A stretch of DNA of 64,000 nucleotides from an uncultured Candidatus Saccharibacteria bacterium (GCA_964487045.1 CAZAOT010000001.1:4875-68874); one strand, 5' to 3'; shown: positions 12,897-55,700, numbered from the stretch's first letter. Notes: generated by a model not told the origin, from the sequence alone. Program-made: numbers and translations.

Positions 12897-12912
12897 TTAA
12901 ATTCGGAGGAAG

Positions 12913-14049: not shown

Positions 14050-14105
14050 TTCTGTTTGTAGGCAATTGTTTTAAATTAGCCTTCTACTGGCTAAATAATT
14101 AGTTT

Positions 14106-16384: not shown

Positions 16385-16385
16385 A

Positions 16386-19337: not shown

Positions 19338-20164
19338 GAATAAATCTTTCCAGCTATTCTTGGGACGATATAGTTGTAGAATTTTCTAAGAAAGCTAATT
19401 TTTAGCAAGTTATACTGAACGTAATTTTTAAAATACGCTTTTGTAAATCCTGGATAATCTTTTTTATATCTCGATATGATCTGCAAATGCTCTCTCATCG
19501 CGTGAACCTTATTTTGGTTTGAGTAAGAAGTAGGGTGGAAGTGGTATTTTAGGCAGAAATCTCCCAGGTTAGCGAGTTTGGCATGAGTGCCAATGCGAAG
19601 CCAGTATTCGAAATCCTCAGTGCCGTATTTTAAATCTTCCAGATAGTATCCGATTCTATTTACTAAGCTTTTTCTAAACATTACAGAAGGGGCTACGAAC
19701 ATCGAGGCCATTAAAAGTTTTTTTCTGATCTTTTCGTCAGTTGTTGGCGGAATAAGCTCAAAATTTGGTCCATCCTCGTTTATGACTTTGGTCCAAGTTC
19801 CAATTAAGCCAAGATCGGGATCATTGAGTAGGGCTTTGGATTGTTTCTCCAGTTTCTTTTTATCAATAAACAAGTCGTCCTGATCAAGCCTGGCTATGAA
19901 TTGTCCTTTTGCAACCCTAAGACCTTTGTTTTGCGTTTTGGCTATTCCGAGATTTTTTTCGTTGATTACTAACGTGACATTGTTGGGGTTTTTCTTCTGG
20001 ATTTTTTTTGCTAATTGGAGGCTTTTATCCTTAGAGCCGTCATCAATCAAGACTATTTCTACCTGACTGAAAATTGTTTGATTAAGAACACTCGAAACAG
20101 CCCTCTCGAGTGTTTTTTCTCCGTTGTAAACCGGAATGATAACCGATACTAAAGCGTTCTTCAT
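19334..20164 (-). CDS. family 2 glycosyltransferase
   Basis: 276 aa. VSVIIPVYNGEKTL, DDGSKD and DQDD motifs. ATGA overlaps on both sides. Confidence 0.85.
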   Translation of the reverse strand: MKNALVSVIIPVYNGEKTLERAVSSVLNQTIFSQVEIVLIDDGSKDKSLQLAKKIQKKNPNNVTLVINEKNLGIAKTQNKGLRVAKGQFIARLDQDDLFIDKKKLEKQSKALLNDPDLGLIGTWTKVINEDGPNFELIPPTTDEKIRKKLLMASMFVAPSVMFRKSLVNRIGYYLEDLKYGTEDFEYWLRIGTHAKLANLGDFCLKYHFHPTSYSNQNKVHAMREHLQIISRYKKDYPGFTKAYFKNYVQYNLLKISFLRKFYNYIVPRIAGKIYS

Positions 20165-24189: not shown

Positions 24190-24218
24190 TTGACTTGAAG
24201 CCGATATTATGTTATTTT
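24190..24218 (+). promoter_or_regulatory. putative promoter of GC-rich island 1
   Basis: TTGACT (24190-24195), 17 nt, then TATTTT (24213-24218). The -10 box is weak. The track ATG at 24209 lies inside this promoter. Confidence 0.35.
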
Positions 24219-24268
24219 TTTGTGTCAGGTTTTTTGCAGCCTGCATCACAGCAAGGGAGGGTTGTACC

Positions 24269-27868: not shown

Positions 27869-29638
27869 ATGCAAGAGCTGGTGCTGTTTGTTGCTGTAAT
27901 CGGCTATCTGATCGGGTCGATACCGATCGGCTATCTGATTGGCAAGAAGTTCGGCGTGAATCTTCTCGAAGAAGGGTCTAAGGCGATCGGCCGGACCAAC
28001 CTCGAGCGGGTTCTCGCGCCGATCATCGGCGCCAAGCGCGCCAAGCTCTGGGGTTATATCGGCGAGGCAGGCGACCAGCTCAAGGGACTCGTCCCAATTC
28101 TGATTGGTATGCTTCTGCTTCGTCTTGACCCCATCTCGCTCGCTGTCCTCGCTACTTCGCTCATTCTCGGCCACTGCTACTCTGCGTTTCTTTTCTTCAG
28201 GGGTGGCAAGGGAGTCGCGACGACGATGGGCATCGTGCTTGCTCTTTGCTGGTACATCGCTGTGCCATGCTACGTGTTCTGGTTTGCCGCCAAGAAAGCG
28301 CTCGAGACCAAGACGCAGGAGGCAACCGCACTCGCTTCGATTCGCGGAGGTCTTCTGGTTGGTGTTCTGGGAGTCATGGTCACGCACGACCTGGCCATGC
28401 AGATCTTCTTCGCCTTTGCTGCGCTTCACATCGTTTTTGCTCACCGCGAGAACCTGAAGCGCTACAGGCAGGAACAGCTGCAGAAGAAGCTTGAGAAAGC
28501 AAGCTTCCCGGACGATATGCCGACCGGTGTATTCATCACCGATGCGGCTACGAACAATCCTGAGACGGTCAAGCGGCTTCTGATGCAAAAGAAGAAGTTC
28601 GCCTGGCTCGTCAACCTCTTTCCGGCCCAGTTCGTCTGCGACGTGATTCTCCCCATCATCCCGATGAAGTACCTGAAGATGGGCGAGGTCATCCTCGAGA
28701 ATGATCTTGGGGCCAAGGTCAGAGTTGTGACCTGGGGCTACCCGGACATCCCAAGACGAATGATGGAGAACCCGGGCCGTACGATCTCGAGGCTACTTGA
28801 TCTTTGTTCATACGTCGAGTCGCTTGGTGCAGACGACATCTGCCTTGGCGCCAACACAGCCAGTGTCGGCGACAAGGGAGCAACGCTTCAGCAGTTTGCC
28901 CAGTCGATCACGAACGGCAATCGCCTAACCTGCGTCTATGCGGTTAAGGCTGCTCTCAAAGTGCTAGACACAATGCTAATCCCTCGAGGAACCGCTGTAG
29001 CAACTGTGGTTGGCAGTGGCGGCTCAGTAGGAGATGGCGTGTGTCAGCTTCTGCTCAAGGCCGGTATCGGACGCCTGTATTTGGTTGGAAGCACTCTTGG
29101 TAAACAGGCTGGTCAGGCAACTGAGCTCTCGAGGCGTTTTGGGGTTCCGGTTGAAGAACTGGGACTAATGGACGCCCTCTCGCGAAGTCATCTGGCCATC
29201 TTTGCCTCTAGTGGTACGGCCAGAGAGAACGCGCACAAGATCAATCCCGAGGCGCTTCCAGCAGGCTTGATTGTCGTTGACATGGAACGCCCGCGCGAGA
29301 TCTCAAAGATGCTTGCCGAGTATGTGTGGCTTCTGCCGAACGATGGTGGCATGGTTGCTATCGAAGGAACGGGCAAGGCTGGGACTGGCTTGCCTGAAGG
29401 CGTTTACTTCCCTTGTTTCAGCGAACTAGCCTTGCGCCTCTTCCGCGGAATCAGGACGAAGTGGTGCTATCCAGCTACTCTCGAGGAATTGAGGGAGGTT
29501 TGGGAAGCGGCTGAGGAGGAAGGCTTCTCTCTAGCTGGTCTGCGTCTTAATGAGCAGCCAGTTGAAGATCATGAGCTTGCTTTCCGTATCGAGCAAGCAG
29601 AGATGGCAAAAGCCTACAAACCCAGGAGGGTGACATGA
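27869..29638 (+). CDS. fusion protein: PlsY-like glycerol-3-phosphate acyltransferase + acyl-ACP-reductase-like NAD(P) domain
   Basis: 589 aa, GC-rich.
- Residues 1-200 are PlsY-like: YLIGSIPIGYLIGKKFG, GDQLKG, LGHCYSAFLFFRGGKGVATT, AHRENLKRY.
- Residues about 215-589 are collinear with cyanobacterial AAR recalled from memory: TNGN, VVGSGGSVG and YFPCFSE versus TTGN, VVGATGDIG and MFACFAE, which contains the catalytic Cys. Confidence 0.8.
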   Translation: MQELVLFVAVIGYLIGSIPIGYLIGKKFGVNLLEEGSKAIGRTNLERVLAPIIGAKRAKLWGYIGEAGDQLKGLVPILIGMLLLRLDPISLAVLATSLILGHCYSAFLFFRGGKGVATTMGIVLALCWYIAVPCYVFWFAAKKALETKTQEATALASIRGGLLVGVLGVMVTHDLAMQIFFAFAALHIVFAHRENLKRYRQEQLQKKLEKASFPDDMPTGVFITDAATNNPETVKRLLMQKKKFAWLVNLFPAQFVCDVILPIIPMKYLKMGEVILENDLGAKVRVVTWGYPDIPRRMMENPGRTISRLLDLCSYVESLGADDICLGANTASVGDKGATLQQFAQSITNGNRLTCVYAVKAALKVLDTMLIPRGTAVATVVGSGGSVGDGVCQLLLKAGIGRLYLVGSTLGKQAGQATELSRRFGVPVEELGLMDALSRSHLAIFASSGTARENAHKINPEALPAGLIVVDMERPREISKMLAEYVWLLPNDGGMVAIEGTGKAGTGLPEGVYFPCFSELALRLFRGIRTKWCYPATLEELREVWEAAEEEGFSLAGLRLNEQPVEDHELAFRIEQAEMAKAYKPRRVT

Positions 29639-30804
29639 ACAGTAGGGTGGCCGTGCTTGGAGCGGGCCAGTTTGGCTTTGCTCTTGCTTGCCGATTGGCT
29701 CAAGGCGGGATAAAGACGGTTCTGTGGGGCCGTAGTCCGCATATTCTCAGCGGTCCGCGGGCAGTCTCACAGCGGTTCAGTGGTGGATCGCCGCCCCTTG
29801 GGCTTCAAGTTACTGGCGGATCAGGTCTTCCCAGCCTGGATGACTTTGACCTGGTCTTTGTCGCCACTGATTCTTCTGGACTCGCTGAGCTAGTCCCGAT
29901 GATCGCCCAGAGTGATATTGGCGATACGCCGGTTCTTCTTGTCCAGAAGGGTCTTGTGAATGGTGTCTCTCCCGTGGAATTCGCTAGCGCCGCCGGACTT
30001 AACGCCGGTTCGTTTACCGGCGCGGCCTTCGCAAGTGACATCTATCTCGGCTCTGAGGCGATGATGATCGTCGCAGCCGAGGACGTTACCCTCTGCATTA
30101 CAGTGATGGAGCTGCTTAAGCCCCTTAAGTTCTGGATAACTGCATGTAGTGATCCAGACGCGATCTGCGCTGCCAACGTAGCGCGAACGATCACCTCGAT
30201 CGAGATGGGTATTGTCAGCGGCTTCGCGGACTACTTGCAGCGCCAATCAAAGTATGCACTGGTGCCGCATAGGTCGCCTGACTTTACTCCAACCGAGATC
30301 GCGGCGGCCACCGCTAGCATCCAGTACGAGTGGCGGGTTGTCTCAGCGATGCTTAGTCCGGTGATTAACTCCTTGCTCTATCCAGAAGTAGTCTCGGATG
30401 ATGTTTCGATCGTGCGCAACATCAATCGCGAGCGCATTCTCAGGGTCCTTTCCGCTGACAACTACCTCTGCAGCGGGATGATACTCGACCGTAACGACAG
30501 GGGAGGAGATTCTCGGGTGACTCTGGGTCTTCCTCTCGCCACACCGGTCTCGCGCAACTGGCGGTTTGGCTATGCGCTTGGCTGCTGGCGTTATGTCCCG
30601 GATGCCATAAGGGCGGTTGCTGACCTTGGAGTGATCCAGGGGCAGCAGAACGCTCTTGATCTATACAAGCGGTTCGGTGCGAGCGCCCCGCCGTTTCTCA
30701 CCTCCCTTGGCCGAATCTTGACTGAAGTGTCAAAGGTCGAGGAGGAGATCCAGGTCATTCGCGATCGTCGCGATGCCTGGTATGAAAAGTACGCTTCTAG
30801 CTGA
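29635..30804 (+). CDS. divergent GpsA-like NAD(P)H-dependent glycerol-3-phosphate dehydrogenase homolog
   Basis: 389 aa, GC-rich. VAVLGAGQFGFALACRLAQGG...VLWGR aligns with the GpsA N-terminus, and further blocks are collinear (VLLVQKGL; FTGAAFA). ATGA overlap with the upstream fusion gene. Confidence 0.65.
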   Translation: MNSRVAVLGAGQFGFALACRLAQGGIKTVLWGRSPHILSGPRAVSQRFSGGSPPLGLQVTGGSGLPSLDDFDLVFVATDSSGLAELVPMIAQSDIGDTPVLLVQKGLVNGVSPVEFASAAGLNAGSFTGAAFASDIYLGSEAMMIVAAEDVTLCITVMELLKPLKFWITACSDPDAICAANVARTITSIEMGIVSGFADYLQRQSKYALVPHRSPDFTPTEIAAATASIQYEWRVVSAMLSPVINSLLYPEVVSDDVSIVRNINRERILRVLSADNYLCSGMILDRNDRGGDSRVTLGLPLATPVSRNWRFGYALGCWRYVPDAIRAVADLGVIQGQQNALDLYKRFGASAPPFLTSLGRILTEVSKVEEEIQVIRDRRDAWYEKYASS

Positions 30805-36828: not shown

Positions 36829-37220
36829 ATATCGATTCTGCTATAATTAATCTGTACTAATTTTTCTGCAAAACATTTACTTCTGCGTGAAGTATCTCAA
36901 AAGAGGGGGCACCCCGATTAAATTTACATATTTAACGGGTCGAGGTGACGTACTTTTTTCGCCTAAAATCTGATAGGTAATCGTTCAGTCTCGCCTGGCA
37001 CCCTATTGCATAGCGCGATAGAACTATCACAAGTCTAACAACCTCTTTTTGCTCGCTTTGTTAAAGTCGAAATCATTTCTTTGGTTTTTACAAAGTAGAG
37101 CTAAGCGAAACCAGTCGCTATTATTAGTTTTTTGTTCGAAGGAGGGGAAAATTCGGCAATTGTTTTGTTAGTGATTTTTTTCATACTAATGAGTGGGCGG
37201 TAAGATTTTAAAAAATATTT

Positions 37221-37264
37221 AAACAAAAGAGGCGGGAGCGAAGGGGTTGCCCTTCGCTCCCGCC
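37221..37264 (-). terminator. intrinsic terminator of the GC-rich small-protein operon
   Basis: GGCGGGAGCGAAGGG pairs with CCCTTCGCTCCCGCC (37231-37264), followed on the minus strand by TCTTTTGTTT. Confidence 0.8.
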
Positions 37265-37270
37265 GGGATG

Positions 37271-37423
37271 CTACGCGCTTTTCGCGCGCTTGATGTGGTA
37301 GGCGAGTGAGATGATGGCGCACACCCCACAGAAGAATGGGATTGCGCGTATGTGCTCACCTCCATAGGCCTCAATAAGGCCGCCAGTGACCAGCGATAGA
37401 ATCGAATAGCCCAGAAGACTCAT
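37271..37423 (-). CDS. 50-aa two-TM peptide (gene D of GC-rich operon)
   Basis: MSLLGYSILSLVTGGLIEAYGGEHIRAIPFFCGVCAIISLAYHIKRAKSA. RBS TAGGAG overlaps the stop of gene C. Not in the ORF track because of its size. Confidence 0.55.
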   Translation of the reverse strand: MSLLGYSILSLVTGGLIEAYGGEHIRAIPFFCGVCAIISLAYHIKRAKSA

Positions 37424-37433
37424 CGTGATACTC

Positions 37434-37709
37434 CTATTCTAATCCCAGAGTTGCTCCGCCGGCAAAGCGGCGTTCTGTTTCAGCGAGGAGAGCCTTTCCC
37501 TCGATCGTCACCATGTTGTCCGACATGATTCCTTGCTTGTCTGGACAAATGATGAGTTCTGCTTCGCCTGTCAGTCTGACTTCAGCGGAACTCGTTTCCG
37601 CTATCTCGACAAAAAGAGGTGGCTCGTGTGAGCCAGACTTATTCTTCAGACAGACCCAGATACGCGAGCCGACAGGTTGGCGCCTGAGGTCGAAGAAGTT
37701 TAGCTTCAC
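37434..37709 (-). CDS. 91-aa soluble protein (gene C of GC-rich operon)
   Basis: GTG at 37709, preceded by GAGGAGG. GTGA start/stop overlap with gene B. VKLNFFDLRRQPVGSRIWVCLKNK... No family recognised. Confidence 0.6.
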   Translation of the reverse strand: MKLNFFDLRRQPVGSRIWVCLKNKSGSHEPPLFVEIAETSSAEVRLTGEAELIICPDKQGIMSDNMVTIEGKALLAETERRFAGGATLGLE

Positions 37710-37927
37710 GCTACCTCCTCGCTTGACGCTTCGGCTGTTTCTTCTCTTCTTCCTCTGAACGAAGAGATGATGGCAAGGCCGCCACAGAAGATGCAATTGC
37801 CGCTTGCGAGGAGAGTCACTGAGACTGGCACGTCCTGCTTGATGTAGAGAATACCGAGCAGGACAAGTCCCATGGCGATTAGTCCGAGACCGCTAAGGAT
37901 CAGGCTTATATCCGGTTTGTATTTCAT
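37706..37927 (-). CDS. 73-aa two-TM protein (gene B of GC-rich operon)
   Basis: MKYKPDISLILSGLGLIAMGLVLLGILYIK...NCIFCGGLAIISSF. RBS AAGGGAAAG. Starts 15 nt after the gene A stop. Confidence 0.65.
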   Translation of the reverse strand: MKYKPDISLILSGLGLIAMGLVLLGILYIKQDVPVSVTLLASGNCIFCGGLAIISSFRGRREETAEASSEEVA

Positions 37928-37942
37928 TGGTGCTTTCCCTTT

Positions 37943-38077
37943 CTAGCGCGTGAATGCGAACTGGGGAAGGTGCTGCCAGGCGAGAGCAATGGCAGCACAG
38001 AAGATGATCACTAGTCCTACCAAGGCGAGGTAGGCCGGCAGATTGTGCCTTTCTGATTCTAGGAATCTTAGTCGCAT
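37943..38077 (-). CDS. 44-aa single-TM peptide (gene A of GC-rich operon)
   Basis: MRLRFLESERHNLPAYLALVGLVIIFCAAIALAWQHLPQFAFTR. RBS AGGGAGAGGG lies 3 nt upstream of the ATG at 38077. Confidence 0.5.
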   Translation of the reverse strand: MRLRFLESERHNLPAYLALVGLVIIFCAAIALAWQHLPQFAFTR

Positions 38078-38204
38078 GATCCCTCTCCCTATGTCAAGTT
38101 TCTTGTGTTTTACAGAATTAGGATATTTTACATCAAAAAACCCACCTTATCAAGGGTGGGCGATCATTATTTGATCAGATCATGATATATTAAATGTCTT
38201 AGTC

Positions 38205-38233
38205 TTGAAAACTTTGCGCATAAGAAGTAGTAT
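38205..38233 (+). promoter_or_regulatory. promoter of tRNA-Arg
   Basis: TTGAAA (38205-38210), 17 nt, then TAGTAT (38228-38233), 11 nt before the mature tRNA 5' end. Confidence 0.55.
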
Positions 38234-38244
38234 TACCCTGATAT

Positions 38245-38321
38245 GCACCCGTAGCTCAGCTGGATAGAGCGTTGGCTTGCGGAGCCAAAGGTCGTAGGTT
38301 CGAATCCTATCGGGTGTACCA
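38245..38321 (+). tRNA. tRNA-Arg (anticodon GCG)
   Basis: 77 nt. Acceptor GCACCCG/CGGGTGT, D arm with A20, anticodon arm TTGGC-TTGCGGA-GCCAA, T arm GTAGG-TTCGAAT-CCTAT, encoded CCA. Its last 6 nt are also the first 6 nt of IR-A. Confidence 0.9.
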
Positions 38322-39776
38322 GTACGGAAATGTCAAATTTTGGGAGTTTGCGCCGCCTGCGGCGGCGACTAAATTGTAGGGAATTTTTGCTTCAAAATGC
38401 CACTTTCGATTCTGTAAGAAATGGTTCGAGCCGATATTTTTGAGAAATGTTAGAATTTCCGAATAATCTTCGGAATTTTTTAGTTTATCTGCTTTGGCAA
38501 GCGATAAAATGAACTCTTTGGCCGGTTCGAGCCAAGACAATCCTTTTTGTTCAAAATCTGTAATTTTTTCGTTAATCTCCAGCTTTTCGCTAAGTAGCTT
38601 TTGTTTTCGCAAAGTATATTCTTCGGTTGTAATGACTTCGCTCAGATATACATCGAGTAATTTTTCAAGCTGTTTCGTAATTTCTTCGAGCTTTACTTTG
38701 AGATTTTGAACAGAAGTTTTAGCCAACGTTCTTGCTTGAGTTTCTTGTTTCTCTAATTCAAACAAAACTTTTTTGGTATCTTGGCTCGACAAAGAAACTT
38801 TTTGTAAATACCCATTTATTTGCTCAACGAGTTTTTCTTCTCGCAGATAATGCTTTTCTTGGCAACCACTTTTCTTTTTTGTGCATCGGTAATAGTTGTG
38901 GCCTTTTTGTATTTCGGCAGTAATCGCACAGCCGCAACTTTTACATTTCATAAGCCCAAGAAAAGCAAAATGATGTTTTTCCTTTTTGCGAGGCTTGCCA
39001 CGATCTTTCAATACTTCTTGGCATTTATCAAAAAGTTTCTTTGGGATTATCGGTTTGTGTTTTCCTTCGTATATTTCGCCGTTATATTTCATTAGCCCAA
39101 TGTAGAAAATATTTTGTAGAATTGAATTGATATTGCTGATAGAAATCCTCTTGTTGAGATTCCCGAATAACATGTCATCTTCCGCCCAATTTGCGAGAGA
39201 ATTAAAGGTATATTTGCCGGTTGAATAGAGCTCAAAAAGCTTTCTGACTTTTCTAACCTTTATTTCGTCGACATCAATATTTCTTGTTCTCGGATTATTT
39301 ATATAGCCAACCGGCGCCCAGCCGGGCCAAACTCCATTTCGTATTTTTTGCCTTAACCCTCGTTTTACATTCTCTCGCAAATTGTCTACAAAATATTTTG
39401 ATTGACCAAAAGCAATGTTCAACATGAAAATCCCTTGAGGTGTTGGTTCAAACCAGAACGAAGGAAAACACAAGGATTTGATTTTCTGCCGGTCTATCAT
39501 GTGGATTATCTTTCCACCGTCTACACTATTTCTTGCTAACCTGTCAGGGTGCCAACTCAAAATCCCTTCCGCCTTTCCTTTTTCGATCAATTCTAACATT
39601 TCAGCGAACTTCGTTCGACCAGGTTCTTTGGCAGTTTTGGCTTCGCACAGCGAAGCGACAATTTCAAGTTTTTCTTTGGCGGCAAATTCCCGAAGCTCAA
39701 CTAGTTGAGCTTCAATCGAAAGAACTTGTCTGTCATCATCTTCAGTACTTTTGCGAGCGTAAATTATGTAGCGCAT
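38307..39776 (-). CDS. large serine recombinase (integrase)
   Basis: 489 aa from the ATG at 39776 (RBS AAAGGAGG).
- MRYIIYARKSTEDDDRQVLSIEAQ resolvase catalytic domain (Ser10).
- Recombinase domain, zinc ribbon CKSCGC...YYRC...C, and a coiled-coil.
- AT-rich.
- The last roughly 36 codons lie in IR-A, and the stop lies inside the tRNA. Confidence 0.9.
   Translation of the reverse strand: MRYIIYARKSTEDDDRQVLSIEAQLVELREFAAKEKLEIVASLCEAKTAKEPGRTKFAEMLELIEKGKAEGILSWHPDRLARNSVDGGKIIHMIDRQKIKSLCFPSFWFEPTPQGIFMLNIAFGQSKYFVDNLRENVKRGLRQKIRNGVWPGWAPVGYINNPRTRNIDVDEIKVRKVRKLFELYSTGKYTFNSLANWAEDDMLFGNLNKRISISNINSILQNIFYIGLMKYNGEIYEGKHKPIIPKKLFDKCQEVLKDRGKPRKKEKHHFAFLGLMKCKSCGCAITAEIQKGHNYYRCTKKKSGCQEKHYLREEKLVEQINGYLQKVSLSSQDTKKVLFELEKQETQARTLAKTSVQNLKVKLEEITKQLEKLLDVYLSEVITTEEYTLRKQKLLSEKLEINEKITDFEQKGLSWLEPAKEFILSLAKADKLKNSEDYSEILTFLKNIGSNHFLQNRKWHFEAKIPYNLVAAAGGANSQNLTFPYWYTR
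38316..38415 (+). repeat. IR-A, left copy (100 bp)
   Basis: Manual base-by-base comparison with the reverse complement of 39817-39916 gives 98/100 identical (mismatches at 38398 and 38407). Contains the palindrome CGCCGCCTGCGGCGGCG. Confidence 0.9.
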
Positions 39777-39816
39777 TTTCCTCCTTTTAATTTCATAAAA
39801 ATTTTCTTTTACAATC

Positions 39817-39916
39817 ACAGAATCAAAAGTGGCAATTTGAAGCAAAAATTCCCTACAATTTAGTCGCCGCCGCAGGCGGCGCAAACTCCCAAAATTTGAC
39901 ATTTCCGTACTGGTAC
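39817..39916 (-). repeat. IR-A, right copy (100 bp, inverted)
   Basis: Reverse complement of 38316-38415 with 2 mismatches. Lies upstream of the recombinase start. Its outer 7 nt (CTGGTAC) are shared with IR-B. Confidence 0.9.
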
Positions 39917-40004
39917 TCTATCCTGAAAATTGTTCGAACGTATTTTGGCCGCGAAGCGGCCGAGAAAACACCCCCGAAAATTCCCGACTGAAATTCTGAA
40001 CTTT
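39910..40004 (+). repeat. IR-B, left copy (95 bp)
   Basis: Manual comparison with the reverse complement of 40970-41064 gives 95/95 identical. Contains the hairpin GGCCGCGAAGCGGCC. Confidence 0.92.
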
Positions 40005-40133
40005 CAAAACTGCCAAAGAATCTGTTTCAAAAATATCGGCTCGAATCCATTAGTTTGTAAAAGAAAATTTTTATTAATTCAATCAGCACTGATTGATTTT
40101 TTATTCTTCTTGGTATATGCTTTTATTCAACAA

Positions 40134-40175
40134 TCGAAAGCAGAAATATTGAGTTTCTCAATTTCCTGCTTTCGA
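40134..40175 (+). promoter_or_regulatory. long imperfect hairpin upstream of the cargo gene
   Basis: TCGAAAGCAGAAATATTGAG, loop TTT, then CTCAATTTCCTGCTTTCGA: a roughly 19-bp stem with small bulges. An alternative CCTGCTT/AAGCAGG stem lies at 40165-40181. Sits about 37 nt before the cargo RBS. Confidence 0.4.
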
Positions 40176-40225
40176 AGCAGGAAAATCTCTGTACAGGCCA
40201 CAAGGCCGTGCAAGGAGTGAGAACA

Positions 40226-40846
40226 TTGTCTAAGGTCAACAGTATCCAGCTCACGTGTCTCAAGCCGAATGACTGTTCCACCCGACTTGCTCTTCCCGAA
40301 GTCACCTACGACTTTCGGGTGTGGGCTATCATCAACGACCTTGAGAAGGCCGTTGAGAAGGCGGGCGGTGCAACGCTCGCAGTCTTCGCGGGTGTTCCGT
40401 GGGAGTACGGGAGCCGCTCGGTCAACTTTCTCAACTATGTGGCCGAGATGGTGGTGAGAACAAACCGCGGCAAAGGGGAATTCATCGGAAGAAGCTATCT
40501 TGCGAGTGGCGGGATGTCACGGCTCGCAAGCTTGATGAAGGACGTTCGGCCAGACGGACAGATCAGAGCTGTGGTCGACCAAATCACGCGAACAATCTGG
40601 TCCGACCAGCCGATCCCGCGCGGTTTGCCCGACAATCTCTGGTACGAGCAGACGGACTACGAGTCGTTCTGCATCAAGTCGGGCAAAGGTGACATCATCA
40701 GGTGGGTTCCCGAGAATCAAGTTCAGGAGGAGCGGACGATGGGATTTCTCCGCTTGGAGTTTGAGGAGCCCTCTGTCAAGCACTTCTGTCAGCTAATTCA
40801 ACAGCTACATCGCTTTCCGGGTGTGGCCGAGTTCGCCAACGGCTAG
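40226..40846 (+). CDS. orphan GC-rich cargo protein of the recombinase element
   Basis: About 206 aa from the TTG at 40226 (AAGGAG 8 nt upstream); GTG at 40208 or 40217 are alternative starts. G/C-ending codon bias. No family recognised. Followed by a terminator. Confidence 0.65.
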   Translation: MSKVNSIQLTCLKPNDCSTRLALPEVTYDFRVWAIINDLEKAVEKAGGATLAVFAGVPWEYGSRSVNFLNYVAEMVVRTNRGKGEFIGRSYLASGGMSRLASLMKDVRPDGQIRAVVDQITRTIWSDQPIPRGLPDNLWYEQTDYESFCIKSGKGDIIRWVPENQVQEERTMGFLRLEFEEPSVKHFCQLIQQLHRFPGVAEFANG

Positions 40847-40869
40847 CTGTAGACCGGAGTACAAGCAAC

Positions 40870-40898
40870 AGGCAGACCAGCAGTGGCCTGCCTTTTTT
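40870..40898 (+). terminator. intrinsic terminator after cargo gene
   Basis: AGGCAGACC pairs with GGCCTGCCT (one mismatch), followed by TTTTTCTT. Confidence 0.6.
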
Positions 40899-40969
40899 CT
40901 TGCCGCCAAAGGAGAAATCTGCTAAGATTTCTCTAGTGAGCGAAGCTCACTAAAAAACTTGAAATTGTC

Positions 40970-41064
40970 AAAGTTCAGAATTTCAGTCGGGAATTTTCGG
41001 GGGTGTTTTCTCGGCCGCTTCGCGGCCAAAATACGTTCGAACAATTTTCAGGATAGAGTACCAG
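40970..41064 (-). repeat. IR-B, right copy (95 bp, inverted)
   Basis: Perfect reverse complement of 39910-40004. Ends with GTACCAG at 41058-41064. Confidence 0.92.
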
Positions 41065-41186
41065 AATAAAATTTGCCCCTCGCGGGCTAATTTTATTATT
41101 TGGGAACCATAGGATTCGAAGGCCGCAGCGAGCGTAGGCGAGCGAGGCGGGGTCGATGAATTTGCCAGCAGGCAAATATCAGTGAC

Positions 41187-41208
41187 CGAATCCTATCGGG
41201 TGTACCAG
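41187..41208 (+). repeat. direct repeat of tRNA-Arg 3' end (att-type site)
   Basis: 22/22 identical to 38301-38322. Followed by hairpin ATATGAC...GTCATAT plus T8 (41210-41248). Confidence 0.85.
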
Positions 41209-41288
41209 AATATGACCCCGCACAAGTGGAGTCATATTTTTTTTATTGATGTTGTTTGATGAGCGGGGTAAAATTAAATAAATAATTA

Positions 41289-41828
41289 ATGGCAAATTAT
41301 ATGAACGAAGATACAAAGCATAAGTTTCTGTTAGCAATTTTGATTATATTGATCATAGTGCTCCTAGGCTTGGTTGGGCTTATCTATAGACAGATTAAGT
41401 CTGCTAGAGACGTGGCAGCTCGAGAGGATGGCTTGGTGTCAAGCTCAGCTACAATCGCTCCTACGGACAATATCAGTGTATCCTACGACTTGGGGTCACC
41501 AAGCAGCGCAAATACGGAGATACTTGATGGCGTTAAGGACGTCGCAAATAGGTTTATGCAAGCCAAAGAAAATCGATCTCTAGAAGAAGCCAAGCCTTAT
41601 ATGACTGAAGATCTATTTAAGTCGACAGCTCAGGAAGAATTCGCTGGAACGTCTAGTCCGTCAATGGATCGATTTGAGGTTAAAAGTGCCCAAGCGGTTA
41701 AGACTCCAAATACTTATGAAGTTGATGTGGTTAGCTACTGGAAATTAAACGGCGAAGATGCCGAAACGGTTAATTATAGTTTGATAGTTATAAAACAAGA
41801 CGAAAATTATCTGGTTAGTAAATTCTAG
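41289..41828 (+). CDS. hypothetical membrane-anchored protein
   Basis: 179 aa with an N-terminal TM helix (FLLAILIILIIVLLGLVGLIY). AT-rich. Confidence 0.65.
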   Translation: MANYMNEDTKHKFLLAILIILIIVLLGLVGLIYRQIKSARDVAAREDGLVSSSATIAPTDNISVSYDLGSPSSANTEILDGVKDVANRFMQAKENRSLEEAKPYMTEDLFKSTAQEEFAGTSSPSMDRFEVKSAQAVKTPNTYEVDVVSYWKLNGEDAETVNYSLIVIKQDENYLVSKF

Positions 41829-43750: not shown

Positions 43751-44179
43751 ATGTGTAAGAAACTGATATTTGCTAGTACGCTGGCACCGAAACTCTACTG
43801 CTTGTGCACACCGAGTGAGGAGTTGCTGGAGGTCTTGCTTGAGCGTGCCAAGGACGATGAGTGTCGCGCCGAGCCACTTATGGTGGCCGAACAGGAGATC
43901 GAGTTCGGGCCAGCCAACTATCTTTATGACGAGGCCCGCATGCGCGTCTGTGAGGCTAGTGCAGGCATGGCTACGGTCATGATCCAGGTCGGTAGTCATG
44001 CTGATGGAATTCGATCAGTGCTTGTGCCTGTTGGCGAGAAGGAGGGTGATGACGAAGCCCTGCCTGAAGGGGCTTTGATGCCAGGTATCGGTTGCCCGAT
44101 GGAATGTCTGCTGGGCCTGGGGCTGTTTTGTCTCGTGATCAAAGGCGGCATTTGCGCCGTCCATTATCTGCTCGGCTAA
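43751..44179 (+). CDS. orphan Cys-rich protein with C-terminal TM helix (GC-rich island 6)
   Basis: 142 aa. RBS GAGGAGAGAG. C-terminus GIGCPMECLLGLGLFCLVIKGGICAVHYLLG. Confidence 0.6.
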   Translation: MCKKLIFASTLAPKLYCLCTPSEELLEVLLERAKDDECRAEPLMVAEQEIEFGPANYLYDEARMRVCEASAGMATVMIQVGSHADGIRSVLVPVGEKEGDDEALPEGALMPGIGCPMECLLGLGLFCLVIKGGICAVHYLLG

Positions 44180-44200
44180 TGGCCGGGAGGGGAGTACAGC

Positions 44201-44512
44201 ATGTCTTTGTTTGGCAAAAAGGGAGAGCCGAAGCCGCCTAAGGTGAGGAAGGAGCGCAAGCCGCGCGCTCCGATCACCAAGGAGCGAGTCTTTGAAGGGT
44301 TGTTGGCTTTTGGCCGCAACCTGTTGCTGGTAGTGACCGTCGTAGGCATCTTGGCGCTCTCGGCGCTCGTCTACGTCCTGTTCCAGAAGATCGGCGGCGG
44401 CAGTAGCGACCCAGCAACGAAGAACCTGATTCTCGTCGCGACTGCGATGACGGCCGGAGGCGGCTTTTTCACGCTCTGGCTCGGCCGCACCTGGGGCATC
44501 ATCCCGTACTAG
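44201..44512 (+). CDS. orphan two-TM protein with Lys/Arg-rich N-terminus (GC-rich island 6)
   Basis: 103 aa. RBS GGGAGGGGAG lies 6 nt upstream of the ATG. Followed by a strong terminator. Confidence 0.65.
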   Translation: MSLFGKKGEPKPPKVRKERKPRAPITKERVFEGLLAFGRNLLLVVTVVGILALSALVYVLFQKIGGGSSDPATKNLILVATAMTAGGGFFTLWLGRTWGIIPY

Positions 44513-44535
44513 GGCTGATGCCTGCGAGCATCTTT

Positions 44536-44576
44536 GGCGGTTTGTCCGGTCACCCGGACAAACCGCCTTCTTTTTT
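44536..44576 (+). terminator. intrinsic terminator
   Basis: GGCGGTTTGTCCGG (44536-44549), loop TCAC, CCGGACAAACCGCC (44554-44567), then TTCTTTTTT. Confidence 0.85.
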
Positions 44577-44582
44577 AAAAAC

Positions 44583-44603
44583 AAAAAAATCGCCCTTTGG
44601 CGA
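44583..44603 (-). terminator. intrinsic terminator of the valS-TPR operon
   Basis: TCGCC (44590-44594) pairs with GGCGA (44599-44603), with a T7 run on the minus strand. Confidence 0.5.
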
Positions 44604-47495: not shown

Positions 47496-47524
47496 TTGAC
47501 TAATTATTACTCTTGAGCTATATT
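47496..47524 (+). promoter_or_regulatory. sigma70-type promoter of GC-rich island 7
   Basis: TTGACT (47496-47501), exactly 17 nt, then TATATT (47519-47524). Confidence 0.65.
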
Positions 47525-47575
47525 TTCAGGATTGAGTGCCCCTTATGGGGCCCAAAGGACATTGAGGTGATGGCG

Positions 47576-48730
47576 ATGCGAATCGGCATGTTCACTTTGA
47601 CTTATGGAAGGTCTAACGGCGTGGCCGTCTCCGTCGCCAATCTGAGCCGCGCGCTTCGCGAAGCCGGCCATGAAGTTCATATCTTCGGGCCAAGCGGTGT
47701 GGCGGATACAGACGAATTCTACCATCCGTTCGTGACGGTGCGATTTCCCCAGGCTCCGGACTATCCGGTGCCAATACCGAACTTCCTGCGTGCTCTCAAG
47801 ATAGCGCGTCGGTACAATCTTAAGCTTATGCACACTCACCATCCTTGGCTGCTCGGCAGTGATGCGGTGAGGGTGGCGCGCGAGCTGGAGGTGCCGGTAG
47901 TTTCCACGGTGCACACTCAGTATGATTTCTACTCCGAGCTTTTCCCGTGGATTCCGAGCAAATGGAAGCGCAAAGCGCTGCATTGGGTGCTCAGGCGTCA
48001 CCTCTGCAGTGTCGATCTGGTGACGACGCCGGGCATTGGTTCCAAGGCGCGCCTGGATGACATGCAGCTGACTACGCCGGTTCGTCTCGTCACCAACGGC
48101 ACCGACCTGTCGCTCTTCGGGTATGGCGGCGCCAACGAAATCAGACGCCAGCTCAGAATTCCGGAAGGCGCCCAGGTCTTCGGCTATGTTGGCCGGTTCG
48201 ATCCCGAAAAAGATCTCGGCACCCTGATCGATGCGGCGGCTAAAGTGTTCAAATGGCATCCGCGAGCCGTGCTGCTCATGGTCGGCGACGGTAAAGAGCG
48301 CGAATCGCTCGAGTGGAAATCCAAACCGCTCGGCAACCGAGTCATCTTCACCGGCCGAATTGCCCACGAGCAAATCGCGCCCTACTACAGCGCGATGGAT
48401 ATCTTCGTCACGCCGAGTAGGTTCGAGGTTCAGCCGATGACCATCGCCGAAGCGTTTGCCAGCGGTTTGCCGGTCGTTGCTTTGGATGTGCCTGGCAGCG
48501 AGATGGTCCATCACGGCTACAACGGCCTGCTCGTGGATCCAGCCCAACCGGTAAGCGCCCTGGCTCGAGGAGTCAGTCAGATCTTTAGCGACCCATTCCG
48601 ACATCTGACGCTACAGGGCCACGCCAGAGAGTCGGCGCGGCAGTACGAAACCGCCGAAGCTTTGTCACAGATGCTCAGTGCCTACCAAGACGCCGGCTAC
48701 TTCTGCCGCACTCGTCAGTCGTCCGTCTAA
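47576..48730 (+). CDS. GT4 glycosyltransferase, GC-rich copy (diacylglycerol glycosyltransferase-like branch)
   Basis: About 384 aa from MRIGMFTLTY (GAGGTG RBS; ATG at 47570 is an alternative start). Motifs NGVAVS, GHEVHIFGP, TVHTQYDFY, VDLVTTPG, EVQPMTIAEA. Resembles alMGS/CpoA-type GT4 (from memory). Confidence 0.8.
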   Translation: MRIGMFTLTYGRSNGVAVSVANLSRALREAGHEVHIFGPSGVADTDEFYHPFVTVRFPQAPDYPVPIPNFLRALKIARRYNLKLMHTHHPWLLGSDAVRVARELEVPVVSTVHTQYDFYSELFPWIPSKWKRKALHWVLRRHLCSVDLVTTPGIGSKARLDDMQLTTPVRLVTNGTDLSLFGYGGANEIRRQLRIPEGAQVFGYVGRFDPEKDLGTLIDAAAKVFKWHPRAVLLMVGDGKERESLEWKSKPLGNRVIFTGRIAHEQIAPYYSAMDIFVTPSRFEVQPMTIAEAFASGLPVVALDVPGSEMVHHGYNGLLVDPAQPVSALARGVSQIFSDPFRHLTLQGHARESARQYETAEALSQMLSAYQDAGYFCRTRQSSV

Positions 48731-51244: not shown

Positions 51245-51538
51245 ATGAAACTAGCATTTGTCCGCACTGAGAAGGGCTGGCAGCGAGGTTACTTCAGCGG
51301 AAGGATGCTGGTCGTAGGAGACAGCAAGCCAATCTCTGAAGTAGAGGCCAGAAGGCAGCTCAGCTTGCCAGGGGAAACGATCGTCAAGGTGATCGTTTCA
51401 GACCAAGTCTTTCGCGCCTATGACGTACTGATGAGACGGGACGATATGAAACCGGAGCAGGTCCAAATGGGTCTGCTGCCAAAGCCTGACAAACCCCGAA
51501 GAGGGTGCTTGATGTGGTTTCTTCCGCGCCATCATTGA
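51245..51538 (+). CDS. orphan 97-aa protein (GC-rich island 8)
   Basis: RBS AAGGGTAGGTGA, then the ATG. GC-rich codons. Followed by a hairpin terminator. Confidence 0.55.
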   Translation: MKLAFVRTEKGWQRGYFSGRMLVVGDSKPISEVEARRQLSLPGETIVKVIVSDQVFRAYDVLMRRDDMKPEQVQMGLLPKPDKPRRGCLMWFLPRHH

Positions 51539-51551
51539 TCCCGAATCTTAC

Positions 51552-51592
51552 AAGGGACGCTCCGCCTTGTGCGGTACGTCCCTTTTCCTTTT
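51552..51592 (+). terminator. intrinsic terminator between convergent island-8 genes
   Basis: AAGGGACG (51552-51559) pairs with CGTCCCTT (51577-51584), followed by TTCCTTTT. Confidence 0.6.
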
Positions 51593-51648
51593 AAAAGTAA
51601 AACGCCCCCCGGACCGTTGGCTCGGGGCATGAGGTTGGCTGGCCGGTG

Positions 51649-51924
51649 CTACTTCTTCTTTGGCCACGCCGGGCAGAGGACGAAGGCAAGCAAGGTGAAT
51701 CCGAGCGCGATGGGCGTTCCGAGGAACGCCCAGGCGACCCCGCTCCATCCCCAGATGGCTCCGGCTGTGACGCACCACCCGATCCATCCGGCGATCCCGA
51801 TGACAAGGGTCCAGAGAATCTTGTCGCCGGCATGGCGGATCCTGGGACAACTTAGGCCGATGAAGACAGCGGCCAAGAGCAATCCCCCTCCAACCGAAAT
51901 CAATGCGGGTACCATCGCACCCAT
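51649..51924 (-). CDS. orphan Trp-rich three-TM protein (GC-rich island 8)
   Basis: 91 aa (MGAMVPALISVGGGLLLAAVFIGL...WIGWCVTAGAIWGWSGVAWAFLG...KKK); the start may be the second Met at 51915. Overlapping ORFs in other frames look like shadows. Confidence 0.6.
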   Translation of the reverse strand: MGAMVPALISVGGGLLLAAVFIGLSCPRIRHAGDKILWTLVIGIAGWIGWCVTAGAIWGWSGVAWAFLGTPIALGFTLLAFVLCPAWPKKK

Positions 51925-51966
51925 CCTTTCTGTTCTGTTGCCAGATTGTCAAAACGCGATCTGGAT

Positions 51967-52711: not shown

Positions 52712-55700
52712 TTGGTCCAAATACCAAAGATTTTTAGCAAATCCAAATTCTTCAGGTTTAGCGAGGTTAAAACTCGCCCGAATCTTGTTATCAAATTTGG
52801 CAAGATAGAAAAAACGGCTGAAGAAAATGCTAAAAAACCTTCTAATTGGTTGATAGTTCTAACGCTAGTTGCAATTGTCATCGTTCAGTCATATTATCCG
52901 TCTGTTCAGACCAAGGCTTCGGGACAGACTTCGATTTCAAAAACTAGCACTTCTGATTGGGCTAAAGGAACTAATTCCGGAGTTAGTACTAGCTCGGATG
53001 AGGTCAAGATCTCTTCTGTGGATGGTTGGGCTAGTGATAACTACGCCTATCGTAAACAATTGACAGTTTCTGCTCAAGCATCTAATACTGTCACAAAAGG
53101 TCATACCTTAAATGCTGCTGGAGTTGGAAGCGGAACTTTTGATGGTAGCGGTGATTATTTTGATCTGGGCGATAATTATAATTCAACTGCATTGCCTGTA
53201 ACGGTTGAAGCCTGGGTCAAGATTACCGGTTCTGCTCCTGGTAGTGCGGGCTGGATGATTTTTGATTCTGATTCAAGCCCAACTTTCTATTATGGTTTTT
53301 GGATGTATGTGGATGTAAATAGAAATGTTTTTTTAAGTTATGGCGATGGTGGAGGTCAGCTATCTACAAATCGTCGCTCTAAAGTTTCTACCGGGACAGT
53401 ATCTCTTGATACTTGGACTCATGTAACTGGAGTGATTCGAGGTGCGACGGATATGTCGATTTATCTAAATGGTGTAGATGCAGGCGGATCTTACTCTGGG
53501 ACGACGAACAATGCTATGGCTCATTCTGTGGATAAAGCTAGGATTGGCTATCGTAATGTTGCAGTTAACCCAATGATGCGAGGAAATATTGACGATCTCA
53601 GAGTTTGGACAAAAGCTCGAACGACCACTGAAGTTACGGCTGATATGAACAAGGAGATATCTGCCCAGGCTAATTTGGAAGGTTATTATAAATTTAATCA
53701 GTCATCTGGAACTTTAGCCGATGATTCTGGTCATAATATCACTGGTACTGCGACTGGAGACGCAGGTTATTCACCATATTCATACGTTTGGGGTGGTATT
53801 GATACAAAGTCTCTAGTTGACGCAGGTAAGATGCGTTCGGACGGGAATGATTTGAGGGTATATTATGGTTCAAATGAAATTGAAAGGGAGTTAGTTCCAG
53901 CGAATGGAAAAACCCTGGCTACATCAGAGGCGACGCAGGTTTTGTTTAAAGCTCAGGCCCAGGTTGCAGGCGGAGCGACGGATAACGGATATTACTTGTA
54001 TTATGGTGATTCAGACGCTACTGATCCAATTGCGAATGTTTATGAAAAGAAGATGCGGGTTAAGAATGCCTATATCAACCCATCCGATGGAGACTCAACG
54101 GCGAACTCTTTGCAGTATAGCGCTGATAATTTTCCAACCGGCGGGGATGGTACTCTCGAACTGTGGTACAAATGGTCGAATCCGGTTTCTAAGTCGTGGG
54201 CAGGACCAATATTTACCGGCAACGACGATAACTCCTGGAGTATCTTCTATGGCAGATCGGGTTATAGGGTGAGATATGGCATTGGTAGTAGCCTTGTTGA
54301 ACCGTCAGGTAGCAATAATGAAGGAGGCGATTGGAACCATGTAGTACTCACATGGCATAACACGGACACCAATTCACAAATTAGAATCTACGAAAATAAT
54401 GCTTTAACACTTTCCAATGATGCTGGAACCAAAATCACAAAATGGCCCGATTATCTAAGGCTTCAAGATCCCCGAGCAGGGTTTGATGGCATAGAGATTG
54501 GTTTGTTTGACATTTATAACACTGCTAAAGATGCAGCATGGGTGTCGAGCCAATACTCAAGGACAACGGCCGTTCCATATGCAGCCGGCAGAGATACCGC
54601 TGCAACTTTTATACACAACTTTGACGGATCCACGTTTGATGCAACGGAAGCCAATGGGGGTTATGCTTTGGGAACCGCAACAGCTACGGCAACAAATGTA
54701 GCAATGAGTGGAGACTATCGAATGGGCGATACCTACGATGAAAGAGCCAATAATTCTTGGGTTAGCGGCGTTTACTATTGGTATGACGATTTTGCCGGCA
54801 ACGGAACGAAGTCGACGCCATGGAGAGAGATTGGAAAAATAAACACCGTTTCGGATGCTACGGTCTTAGGAAATGACCAGCATCTACTTATGAATAAAAA
54901 TAACATTCCAAGCAGCGTCAGAGTGGAAGCCGAAGCCAAAGGTACTGGACCGAAATTTATTTTCAACGACAGCGGTGCCTTTAACACTAACTTTTGCGGC
55001 GATCAGATGACTAGAGATGTCTATCCCGGCGATAGTGTATGGTGGCCAAGGGGTGCGGCGAGCACTTTTATCAGCGCGACTAATCAAAGTTTCATCTTGC
55101 AAAAACGTGATTATATTACTAACGGCAAGAGGATGTATATCGATATTGTAACTCCCGGGAGCTATAGTGGGCTAACCTATGAATACTGGAATGGAACGGC
55201 CTGGACATCTTTTACTCCAACCGATACAACTGCTGGGTTCACTAAAAGCGGTTATATCGATTTCTCGAATATTTATGATTCTCTAAGCGGTAGCAACCCA
55301 CCCACCGTGGGTACTTGTAACTTTTCGGGTCAAACGTATAACCGATTTATTAAAATTACTGCCACGTCAGTTACTACTGCGGCTACTTATAATATTATCT
55401 ACAATCAGTCAGATCATGCCGAAAATTTATTTACTAATGTGTCAAATGCGTTATCCGGTGATCTTCATAGTGCAACTGGTTCGACTACTATCACTCGAAA
55501 TACTAGTGCGTACAAAACAATCGGCATGTCAAAAACGTCAAACACTATCACAAGCTACATGGACGGCTATCAGACCTTTACCTCGACCGCTTCAGGTGGA
55601 GCTTGGGATAATGCGATGATTGGCCTTTCGGCCACGACTGATGCAACTTACGATAGTTTTAAAGCTTACAAAACATTAACTAGTGAACCTTCGACCGCTC

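Follow-up and report, generated by a model that had tools for sequence, protein, structure and literature searches.

Serine recombinases exchange strands at a 2-bp core and make no long repeats, which is established knowledge (PMC3783163). In the Listeria integrase the zinc-ribbon-domain (ZD) motif lies at bp 16-24 in attP and at bp 11-19 in attB, and it is this 5-bp shift of the motif toward the centre in attB that underlies the selectivity for attP x attB (Rutherford et al. 2013, PMC3783163). The tycheposons of Prochlorococcus are 10-20 kb long, have tyrosine recombinases in 910 of 937 cases, often contain replication genes and carry partial tRNA copies at their flanks (10.1101/2020.12.28.424599). 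We have analysed a stretch of 64,000 nucleotides, hereafter the window, from an uncultured Candidatus Saccharibacteria bacterium (GCA_964487045.1, CAZAOT010000001.1:4875-68874). At 38245-41208 it contains a gene for tRNA-Arg(GCG), a convergent gene for a large serine recombinase and, beyond that, a single GC-rich cargo gene. This locus is probably an integrated representative of a family of small elements found across the Patescibacteria, in which a large serine recombinase uses the 3' end of a tRNA gene as attB.

The layout is defined by two inverted repeats of about 100 nt, which an earlier interpretation of the same DNA (the sequence-only reading) had not mentioned. Each is 98% complementary. 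The first (IR1, 38316-38415 / 39817-39916, outer 81 nt perfect) brackets the recombinase, and the second (IR2, 39910-40009 / 40965-41064, outer 95 nt perfect) brackets the cargo. They overlap in a 7-nt core, GTACCAG/CTGGTAC, which consists of the last two acceptor-stem bases, the discriminator and the CCA of the tRNA plus one base. This core is found at 38316 (+), 39910 (-), 41058 (+) and 41202 (+); the window has nine copies of it, compared with 2.4 expected by chance. No other long inverted repeats are present in the 64-kb window. Read along the plus strand, the order is attL (tRNA/x), the recombinase (R) module, the inverted internal junction, the cargo (C) module and attR (y/host flank):

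38245-38321, plus strand: intact tRNA-Arg(GCG) gene (ARAGORN; Rfam tRNA, 69.8 bits)
38294-38345, plus strand: attL, approximate extent, its left part being the tRNA T-arm and the 3' strand of the acceptor stem (alignment of about 57 attL sites)
38307-39776, minus strand: large serine recombinase, 489 aa, with the ribosome-binding site AAGGAGG upstream of the ATG at 39776
38316-38415: left arm of IR1 (x arm), encoding the last ~33 codons of the recombinase (nhmmer E=3.6e-23)
39817-39916: right arm of IR1 (x' arm), upstream of the recombinase
39885-39945, minus strand: internal attP-like junction, x/y on the plus strand and y/x on the minus strand
39910-40009: left arm of IR2 (y arm)
40965-41064: right arm of IR2 (y' arm), with GTTCGAA at 41035-41041, 18-24 bp left of the crossover
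41030-41085, plus strand: attR, approximate extent, made up of the y arm, the central GT at 41058-41059, then ACCAG and host flank

The central dinucleotide of attL is the GT at 38316-38317 (tRNA positions 71-72), followed by the x arm as the right arm (ACCAG TAC GGAAATGTCAAA...). The internal junction has the central dinucleotide AC at 39915-39916 (+) and a TTCGAAC in its y arm at 39933-39939, and its sequence exactly equals the attP of the element (y/x) in inverted orientation. If the centres of attL and attR are taken as 38316-38317 and 41058-41059, the inserted DNA comprises 2,742 bp (38323-41064). What had been described as a minimal integrase-plus-one-gene element of about 2.9 kb is indeed an integrative element, albeit one of 2,742 bp that is built from two inverted-repeat modules and not simply from a recombinase and a cargo gene between repeats.

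Homologues of the recombinase number in the thousands. The best 120 are 69-87% identical, and among these nearly all that carry a taxon name belong to Patescibacteria (Berkelbacteria, Saccharibacteria, Kuenenbacteria, Jorgensenbacteria, Nealsonbacteria). A scan of JGI metagenomes gave at least 600 stretches with relatives of the recombinase. About 90 loci were fetched and oriented on the recombinase gene, and in about 50 of them this gene and a convergent tRNA gene share a few bases at their 3' ends. More than 25 different tRNA genes are occupied across the family, and the isoacceptors include those for Arg (five), Leu (five), Val (three), Lys, Gln and Ile (two each), Ala, Met, Tyr and Glu. 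IR1 is present in almost every locus. Among the loci with scorable upstream sequence, 42 have IR2 as well, where it encloses a module of 0.6-3.3 kb directly upstream of the recombinase module. The same architecture was recovered from JGI, ENA, NCBI metagenome-assembled genome (MAG) and Logan data of unrelated samples. The window is thus an ordinary member of a conserved design, which can be written as tRNA / x-recombinase-x / y-cargo-y / flank; its own flanks are shared by none of the fetched loci. Full-text literature searches, the coverage of which is incomplete, found no description of such a family, and this large family of the candidate phyla radiation (CPR) is apparently undescribed. A phage origin was considered and rejected: IMG/VR holds six weak relatives, none with the tRNA or the inverted-repeat layout.

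To compare the geometry of the attachment sites, all junctions were aligned by a motif that is conserved in the x arm. Those on the tRNA side read ...GGTTCGAnTCC-(9 nt)-[GC]CACCA-NNNN-GGAAA... and the internal junctions ...GAAATGCGTTCGAACTATTTTAAGAATACT-GCACCA-NNNN-GGAAA.... GTTCRA starts at column 17 in 40 attL sites and at column 18 in seven more, and at column 12 in 45 internal sites (relaxed pattern; 26 are exact). The y arm mimics a tRNA 3' end, with GTTCGA always 5 bp farther from the core than in the T-loop of the tRNA. With the crossover at columns 35-36, the motif lies at about bp 18-24 in the y arm and at bp 13-19 in the tRNA; in the window, the T-loop GTTCGAA of the tRNA-Arg (38298-38304) is located 13-19 bp left of the inferred crossover. 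By these spacings, the y arm relates to the tRNA end as attP relates to attB in the published geometry of serine integrases. The position of the crossover can also be derived independently of motif spacing. Two attR junctions with early divergence of the flank share just GCA (L037) and just AC (L046) with the core, which limits the shared core to columns 35-36 and places the inferred crossover there. At tRNA genes without an encoded CCA the shared core is merely GCAC and the CCA is supplied by the element (L057).

The core dinucleotide varies between element lineages and tracks the tRNAs that are occupied:

Core GC: tRNAs for Leu, Lys, Arg, Met, Tyr, Val
Core CC: tRNAs for Ala, Ile, Glu, Val
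Core CA: tRNA for Gln
Core AC: tRNA for Arg
Core GT: tRNA for Arg

In the window the core is GT, at 38316-38317 and 41058-41059 with the complement at 39915-39916, and this fits the G·U-closing acceptor stem of its tRNA-Arg. The two tRNA-Ser genes of the window end in CC-G-CCA and are unoccupied.

The sequence-only reading had proposed a 489-aa large serine recombinase, and hidden Markov model classification agrees with it (Resolvase PF00239, E=6.7e-22; Recombinase PF07508, E=6.6e-14; Zn_ribbon_recom PF13408, E=1.2e-6). The YARKST catalytic motif that it named is present as well, with R8 and S10 invariant in an alignment of 34 sequences, and so are the zinc-ribbon cysteines C278, C281, C298 and C305. 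Since the protein aligns end to end with its homologues and the catalytic Arg and Ser and all four Cys are invariant, the gene is intact and not a pseudogene. A candidate for the coiled coil within the zinc-ribbon domain is the region of residues ~330-420, which is heptad-like by eye (EKQETQARTLAKTSVQNLKVKLEEITKQLEKLL). The nearest sequence matches in the PDB are catalytic domains of resolvase-family recombinases. PHROG 95 ('integrase') matches with E=4e-74, and the match to PHROG 125 ('DNA invertase') is restricted to the catalytic part. The best NCBIfam matches are CcrB (95.5 bits, cut-off 900), XisF (90, cut-off 375) and CcrA (66.8, cut-off 700). By every domain criterion tested, the gene encodes a large serine recombinase, with scores far under the cut-offs of the named equivalogs. 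An exact-sequence look-up of the recombinase returned no record.

The 3' end of the recombinase gene is part of the attachment site. Its stop codon (38307-38309) lies inside the tRNA gene on the antisense strand, and the open reading frame (ORF) crosses the left x arm. Codons 481-486, which lie beside the core, have equal entropy at the three codon positions, whereas in the body of the gene the entropy at position 3 far exceeds that at positions 1 and 2. This indicates a constraint on the DNA and not on the protein. After a conserved Trp the recombinases of the family fall into two tail classes, one with an antisense-tRNA tail and one with a tail encoded by a y arm; the y-tail version of the 489-aa protein would read ...YWYSILKIVRTYFG....

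On the evidence of the compared sequences, the family is demonstrably mobile between tRNA genes. R modules that are 99.2-99.65% identical occur at tRNA-Lys(ttt) in one locus (L019) and at tRNA-Arg(tcg) in another (L031), and the alignment ends in the tRNA. Two contigs carry two copies each (L087, L032). The modules are also mosaic: loci L047 and L067 have recombinase genes that are 98.6% identical and different cargo. Between L049 and L067 the identity is 100% over the flank, the cargo and the initial ~120 nt of the recombinase gene, and from there on the two are ~12% diverged. This last breakpoint (5470-5670 in L049) lies near a short internal palindrome that marks the position of the y arms in the cargo backbone; it may be a recombination hotspot. 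Within one element the arms are identical (median 100% for both repeats) and between loci they are only ~63-65% alike, although assemblers may exaggerate the identity within elements.

The C module carries a GC-rich gene on a conserved non-coding backbone:

39640-39656: short palindrome GCTTCGCTGTGCGAAGC in the N-terminal coding region of the recombinase; judging from the repeats, the y arms occupy the equivalent place in the backbone of the cargo module
39896-39924, plus strand: promoter-like TTGACA-17-TATCCT (pattern match), -35 in x' and -10 in y, pointing at the cargo
40005-40082, plus strand: conserved non-coding backbone in which three short stretches of the recombinase gene recur unchanged
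40208-40846, plus strand: cargo gene, 212 aa (206 aa if the start is at 40226), a GC-rich orphan
40870-40898, plus strand: hairpin and T-run after the cargo, likely a terminator (read from the sequence; a scanner listed the stem on the minus strand only)
40900-40969, plus strand: distal backbone of the cargo module, likewise conserved, with two further pieces of the recombinase gene

As the sequence-only reading had stated, a single GC-rich cargo gene lies between the repeats (GC 0.56, GC at third codon positions (GC3) 0.70), and its composition contrasts with the native AT-rich recombinase gene (GC 0.38; window 0.42). Its product matches nothing in Pfam, NCBIfam or PHROGs. An exact look-up of the 212-aa form returned no record, and the 206-aa form is found on two short Logan unitigs. 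An exhaustive search of representatives yielded only the protein itself and P0122, which was rejected as a relative, its match being a 35-aa repeat inflated by ten copies. A single-sequence AlphaFold model of the cargo protein was unusable (pLDDT, the predicted local distance difference test, 33).

Across the family, nearly every C module contains a single gene, which in almost all cases is divergent from the recombinase. The 42 cargo proteins compared form 34 groups without detectable similarity, and the GC content of the cargo ranges from 0.31 to 0.54, against 0.36-0.45 for the recombinases. By eye they include a short-chain dehydrogenase, an acetyltransferase, a racemase-like protein, a NUDIX hydrolase, a dihydroorotate-dehydrogenase-like protein, a subtilisin-like protease and a kinase as well as many membrane or secreted orphans. 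The most conserved parts of the C module in the 42 loci are the recombinase-like non-coding pieces (column conservation 0.85-0.96; 0.85-0.94 for 40005-40082). Those at 40005-40082 correspond to the N-terminal coding region, the 3' end and the 5' untranslated region of the recombinase gene and also occur in L003 and L004. All are arranged as if a circle containing only the recombinase had been opened at the internal palindrome. The promoter-like element has the family consensus TTGaca-17-TATtCT, derived by hand. One backbone piece, GGCTCGAATCC, resembles a T-loop; the GT that follows it in a pseudo-tRNA-end motif (GGCTCGAATCC...GT, 40038-40058) was dismissed as chance, the L004 counterpart being TA where the core of that locus is GC.

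These observations can be combined into the following mechanism. The zinc-ribbon domain of the recombinase would read GTTCGA both in the tRNA, 13-19 bp from the crossover (a B-type half-site), and in the y arm, 18-24 bp out (a P-type half-site). Strands would be exchanged at the 2-bp core, acceptor positions 71-72 (GT here), and element and tRNA would have to match there. The x arm would restore the discriminator and the CCA upon integration, leaving the tRNA intact. Because the ORF crosses the site, integration would at the same time replace the C-terminal tail of the recombinase. The cargo is probably transcribed from the promoter that is assembled across the internal junction.

A further possibility, which we regard as rather unlikely though worth stating, is that the inverted attP-like junction inside the element functions in a natural device for cassette exchange and self-regulation. 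Identical inverted sites around the cargo could allow whole single-gene modules to be swapped between elements within CPR populations, which would amount to an integron-like shuffling of genes based on a serine integrase and tRNA genes. Likewise, a flip of the R module could change the recombinase tail from the antisense-tRNA to the y-arm version and so act as a directionality switch without a separate recombination directionality factor (RDF). The mosaic modules, the arms that are identical within and ~64% alike between elements, and the two tail classes are consistent with such a device and do not demonstrate it.

Several observations weigh against the proposal that the locus is an integrated, tRNA-targeting element of this kind. 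The host-side right half of attB contains no conserved motif, and the x arm has no GTTCGA motif, which is unusual for a site of a serine integrase. Neither an empty site nor a circular junction was observed: Logan unitig L090, which starts 30 nt into the y' arm, continues without a branch across 41058-41087, so that no allele joining the tRNA to the sequence beyond attR is assembled in SRR11845624, and no fetched contig has the terminal direct overlap of a circle. The upstream Logan unitig (L099) is uninformative on the empty site; it stops before the tRNA, at 37262, at the edge of a GC-rich stretch, where there may be strain variation or repeated sequence. Excision of serine integrases requires an RDF, and among the ORFs of the element (recombinase and variable cargo) there is no candidate for one; excision is thus unexplained. 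The orientation of the R module is a further difficulty. An excised circle would carry two inverted copies of attP, and integration through either copy would put the R module beside the tRNA, as is observed. With two identical copies, however, both orientations of the recombinase would be equally expected, and this is not what is found: its 3' end lies beside the tRNA in ~47 loci, compared with one clear flipped case (L050). Possibly the bias results from selection against read-through from the tRNA promoter. In ~15% of the homologues the C-terminal tail reads into a P-type arm and not into a tRNA; there the 3' x arm adjoins P-type arms of other classes (w, v), with no tRNA nearby, and the second arm is of the w class in several contigs. 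These layouts could not be derived from simple integration. In one 170-kb contig (L091), the arms of IR1 are 73% alike, the 3' x arm is joined to an arm of the w class and there is no tRNA within 21 kb. Finally, the loci were chosen by similarity of the recombinase, and metagenome contigs may be chimeric or homogenised at repeated arms. In L091 the w arm leads into an island of at least 9 kb (11540-21539) with an OLD-family nuclease (AAA_15 and TOPRIM), an N6/N4 methyltransferase and a second serine recombinase of 550 aa.

Four other explanations have to be weighed against the integrated family element. The sequence-only reading had drawn the boundaries of the element at a 22-nt direct repeat, i. 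e. a simple element from 38301 to 41208 whose repeat was duplicated at integration or carried along, as in tyrosine-integrase islands. The repeat, CGAATCCTATCGGGTGTACCAG at 38301-38322 and 41187-41208, is perfect and far above chance (expectation for a 22-mer within 3.5 kb ~1e-7, an arithmetic estimate), although it consists of 21 nt of the tRNA plus one base and not of 22 plus one; moreover, the copy beyond the cargo precedes a terminator-like hairpin, just as the native tRNA end would. Yet exchange at a 2-bp core creates no long repeat, and in 20 other loci where the sequence extends 1.3 kb or more past attR, no copy of 12 nt or more of the target tRNA end is present there. The right end of the family is the y-arm/core junction, here 41058-41064, so that the element would terminate at 41064; the sequence-only reading had offered "41065 onward" merely as an alternative. 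The second copy of the repeat sits 123 nt past attR, and the 122 nt between 41064 and the repeat have no family signal. With the element taken out in silico (38322 joined to 41065), the end of the tRNA becomes ...ACCAGAATA and the repeat grows from 22 to 26 nt (41187-41212). Since it reaches this length only after removal, its contiguous template predates the insertion. The simple element is therefore very unlikely, and the 22-nt repeat, real as it is, probably stems from an older, unrelated event at the same tRNA. Somewhat better, but still improbable, is the view that the R and C modules are two independent circles with palindromic sites (x/x and y/y), which were inserted successively at the tRNA end. 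This would account for the identical inverted arms around each module, for the mosaic modules of L049, L047 and L067 and for R modules flanked by two arm classes, y and w, one on each side (L028, L061, L088), and the cargo backbone does resemble a recombinase-gene circle opened at the internal palindrome. But the order tRNA, R, C is essentially fixed, with no tRNA/y and a single x/flank junction (L035) in ~57 loci. Moreover, x and y overlap in a common core of 6-7 nt, so that y-core-x reads as a single site, the symmetry centre of a putative x/x site would shift between GC, GT and CC cores, and a T-loop-like motif is missing from the x arm.

The remaining two explanations deny recent mobility or the architecture itself. 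A resident invertible switch that is no longer mobile, with phase variation of the recombinase and/or the cargo and only a historical link to the tRNA, would fit the inverted repeats around both genes, the flipped module of L050, the ~15% of tails that read into a P-type arm, and arms whose identity within elements and divergence between loci suggest ongoing exchange. It is hard to reconcile with near-identical R modules at different tRNAs, more than 25 tRNA targets with a core dinucleotide matched to each, contigs with multiple copies and the ~47:1 orientation bias, as free flipping should show both states. As a full explanation it is highly improbable; it is compatible with an integrated family element and not exclusive of it. 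An assembly artefact, in which mis-joins at repeats produced the inverted repeats and the module order, is scarcely credible. It is true that many related contigs end at or near the arms and that assemblers can mis-orient segments between inverted repeats, but the same architecture in independent data of unrelated samples speaks against it. The cargo module and the attR junction of the window are also found with 100% identity in Logan unitigs, and these break at precisely the arm boundaries, where a true inverted repeat of 95-100 nt would break a k=31 graph.

Beyond attR the window contains two features that lie outside the integrated family element:

41065-41186: segment Z, comprising a terminator-like hairpin, a T-arm-like fragment in inverted orientation and a GC-rich stretch
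41187-41208, plus strand: second copy of the tRNA 3' end, a perfect repeat (26 nt, to 41212, upon in-silico excision)

The inverted T-arm-like fragment of Z is CCATAGGATTCGAAGG. Z as a decayed x or y arm was ruled out, the nhmmer match being insignificant (E=7.9). After in-silico removal of the element, 41065-41212 comprises a segment of 118 nt between two 26-nt copies of the tRNA end, and this resembles a scar left when something else was inserted at this tRNA earlier. In unrelated CPR contigs, short partial copies of tRNA genes that are not occupied were seen 100-300 nt from the parent gene (4377-4398 / 4485-4506 in L046 and 2200-2223 / 2525-2548 in L021); such tRNA-fragment scars seem to be common in CPR genomes, independent of this element. 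An Rfam scan of 38000-41500 found nothing but the tRNA. In most bacteria CGN codons are decoded by ACG (inosine) and not by GCG; the anticodon GCG of this tRNA-Arg was also present in other fetched CPR loci (7456-7531 in L066, 1551-1623 in L074).

The sequence-only reading had further suggested that the element offers a mechanism of carriage for the other GC-rich islands of the window. Profile searches with the x and y arms found just the four arms of this locus in the 64 kb. As x and y arms and long inverted repeats are lacking at the other islands, the element supplies no mechanism for them. The gist of the sequence-only reading was right; its boundary and the extension to other islands were wrong, and the most informative features had been missed. 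The further GC-rich genes are located at 24209-25675, 27869-29638, 29635-30804, ~37200-38000, 44015-44584, 47513-48730 and 51245-51952. They are single genes or pairs with a GC content of 0.52-0.60 and a GC3 of up to 0.70 in a genome of ~0.40 GC, and include a PlsY-like acyltransferase fusion, a glycerol-3-phosphate-dehydrogenase-like protein, a GT4 glycosyltransferase and several orphans. Further on, the plus strand has two very long ORFs side by side, at 52712-58615 (1,967 aa) and 58600-63063 (1,487 aa).

A large share of bacterial diversity belongs to the CPR bacteria (Patescibacteria), whose genomes are tiny and for which few routes of gene exchange have been described. If the proposed reading as an integrated family element is true, an element of 2.7 kb that is able to enter most tRNA genes and carries a different gene in nearly every copy would represent a major means of gene flow in CPR that has been overlooked; metagenome contigs that contain it number in the hundreds to thousands. 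In addition, it would offer a natural case in which the bacterial half-site is a universally conserved motif of RNA genes and the half-site of the element a spacing-shifted mimic of it. This would provide a direct natural test of the 5-bp zinc-ribbon-shift model, with a specificity that can be read from the dinucleotide of the acceptor stem. The recombinases could serve as tools for genetically intractable organisms.

With the phage-type integrases (A118/LI, phiC31, Bxb1) the family shares the three-domain protein, P- and B-type half-sites with a 5-bp motif shift and a short shared core. In contrast to these, it targets the 3' ends of many tRNA genes and not one locus, and only the tRNA-side half of attB is conserved. 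It retains an intact inverted attP-like junction inside the element and has 100-nt inverted arms around both modules. It lacks an RDF gene and phage genes and has a single hypervariable cargo slot. The transposases of Tn4451 and Tn5397 (TnpX, TndX) and the Ccr proteins of SCCmec are likewise large serine recombinases that move small non-phage elements with cargo, and the TnpX/TndX and Ccr elements excise and integrate without a known separate RDF. The scores for CcrB and XisF are far under the cut-offs, though, and targets and end structures differ; to our knowledge, neither tRNA mimicry nor a double inverted-repeat architecture has been reported for these elements.

Insertion at tRNA 3' ends, variable niche genes and streamlined, plasmid-free genomes are common to this family, the tycheposons and classical tRNA islands (10.1101/2020.12.28.424599). 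Unlike these, the family elements are only ~2.7 kb long and serine-based, they make no repeat of the tRNA end, and each integrase lineage can use many tRNAs. Scans of the two ORFs of the element gave no tyrosine integrase: the recombinase matched serine-recombinase domains only and the cargo matched nothing. Integron cassettes resemble the C module in having one promoterless-looking gene per unit, an extreme diversity of cargo on a conserved platform and a probable platform promoter. This resemblance is functional only. An IntI domain is absent from the two ORFs scanned, neither attI nor attC was seen (no search with an attC model was made), and the one cargo slot of the family is bounded by 100-nt inverted arms and not by a single attC.

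The Hin/Gin invertases differ in that they are small serine enzymes with a C-terminal helix-turn-helix (HTH) and act on short inverted sites, compared with the arms of ~100 nt and the 489-aa large serine recombinase here. An excised circle would, like the yeast 2-micron plasmid and plastid genomes with inverted repeats, hold two unique segments between identical inverted sites. This is an analogy of layout only: the 2-micron plasmid has a tyrosine recombinase (Flp) and a replication origin, whereas no replication function was seen in the family element. In the archaeal integrases of the SSV type the att site lies within their own ORF and integration alters the protein, a concept described in PMC7253208. 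The SSV-type enzymes, however, are tyrosine integrases with a gene that becomes split into two parts, whereas in this family only the last few codons after the conserved Trp would be swapped. Taken together, the site logic of the family is that of the phage serine integrases, and what sets it apart is the generic tRNA half-site, the P arm that mimics a tRNA, the retained internal junction, the double inverted repeats and the hypervariable slot.

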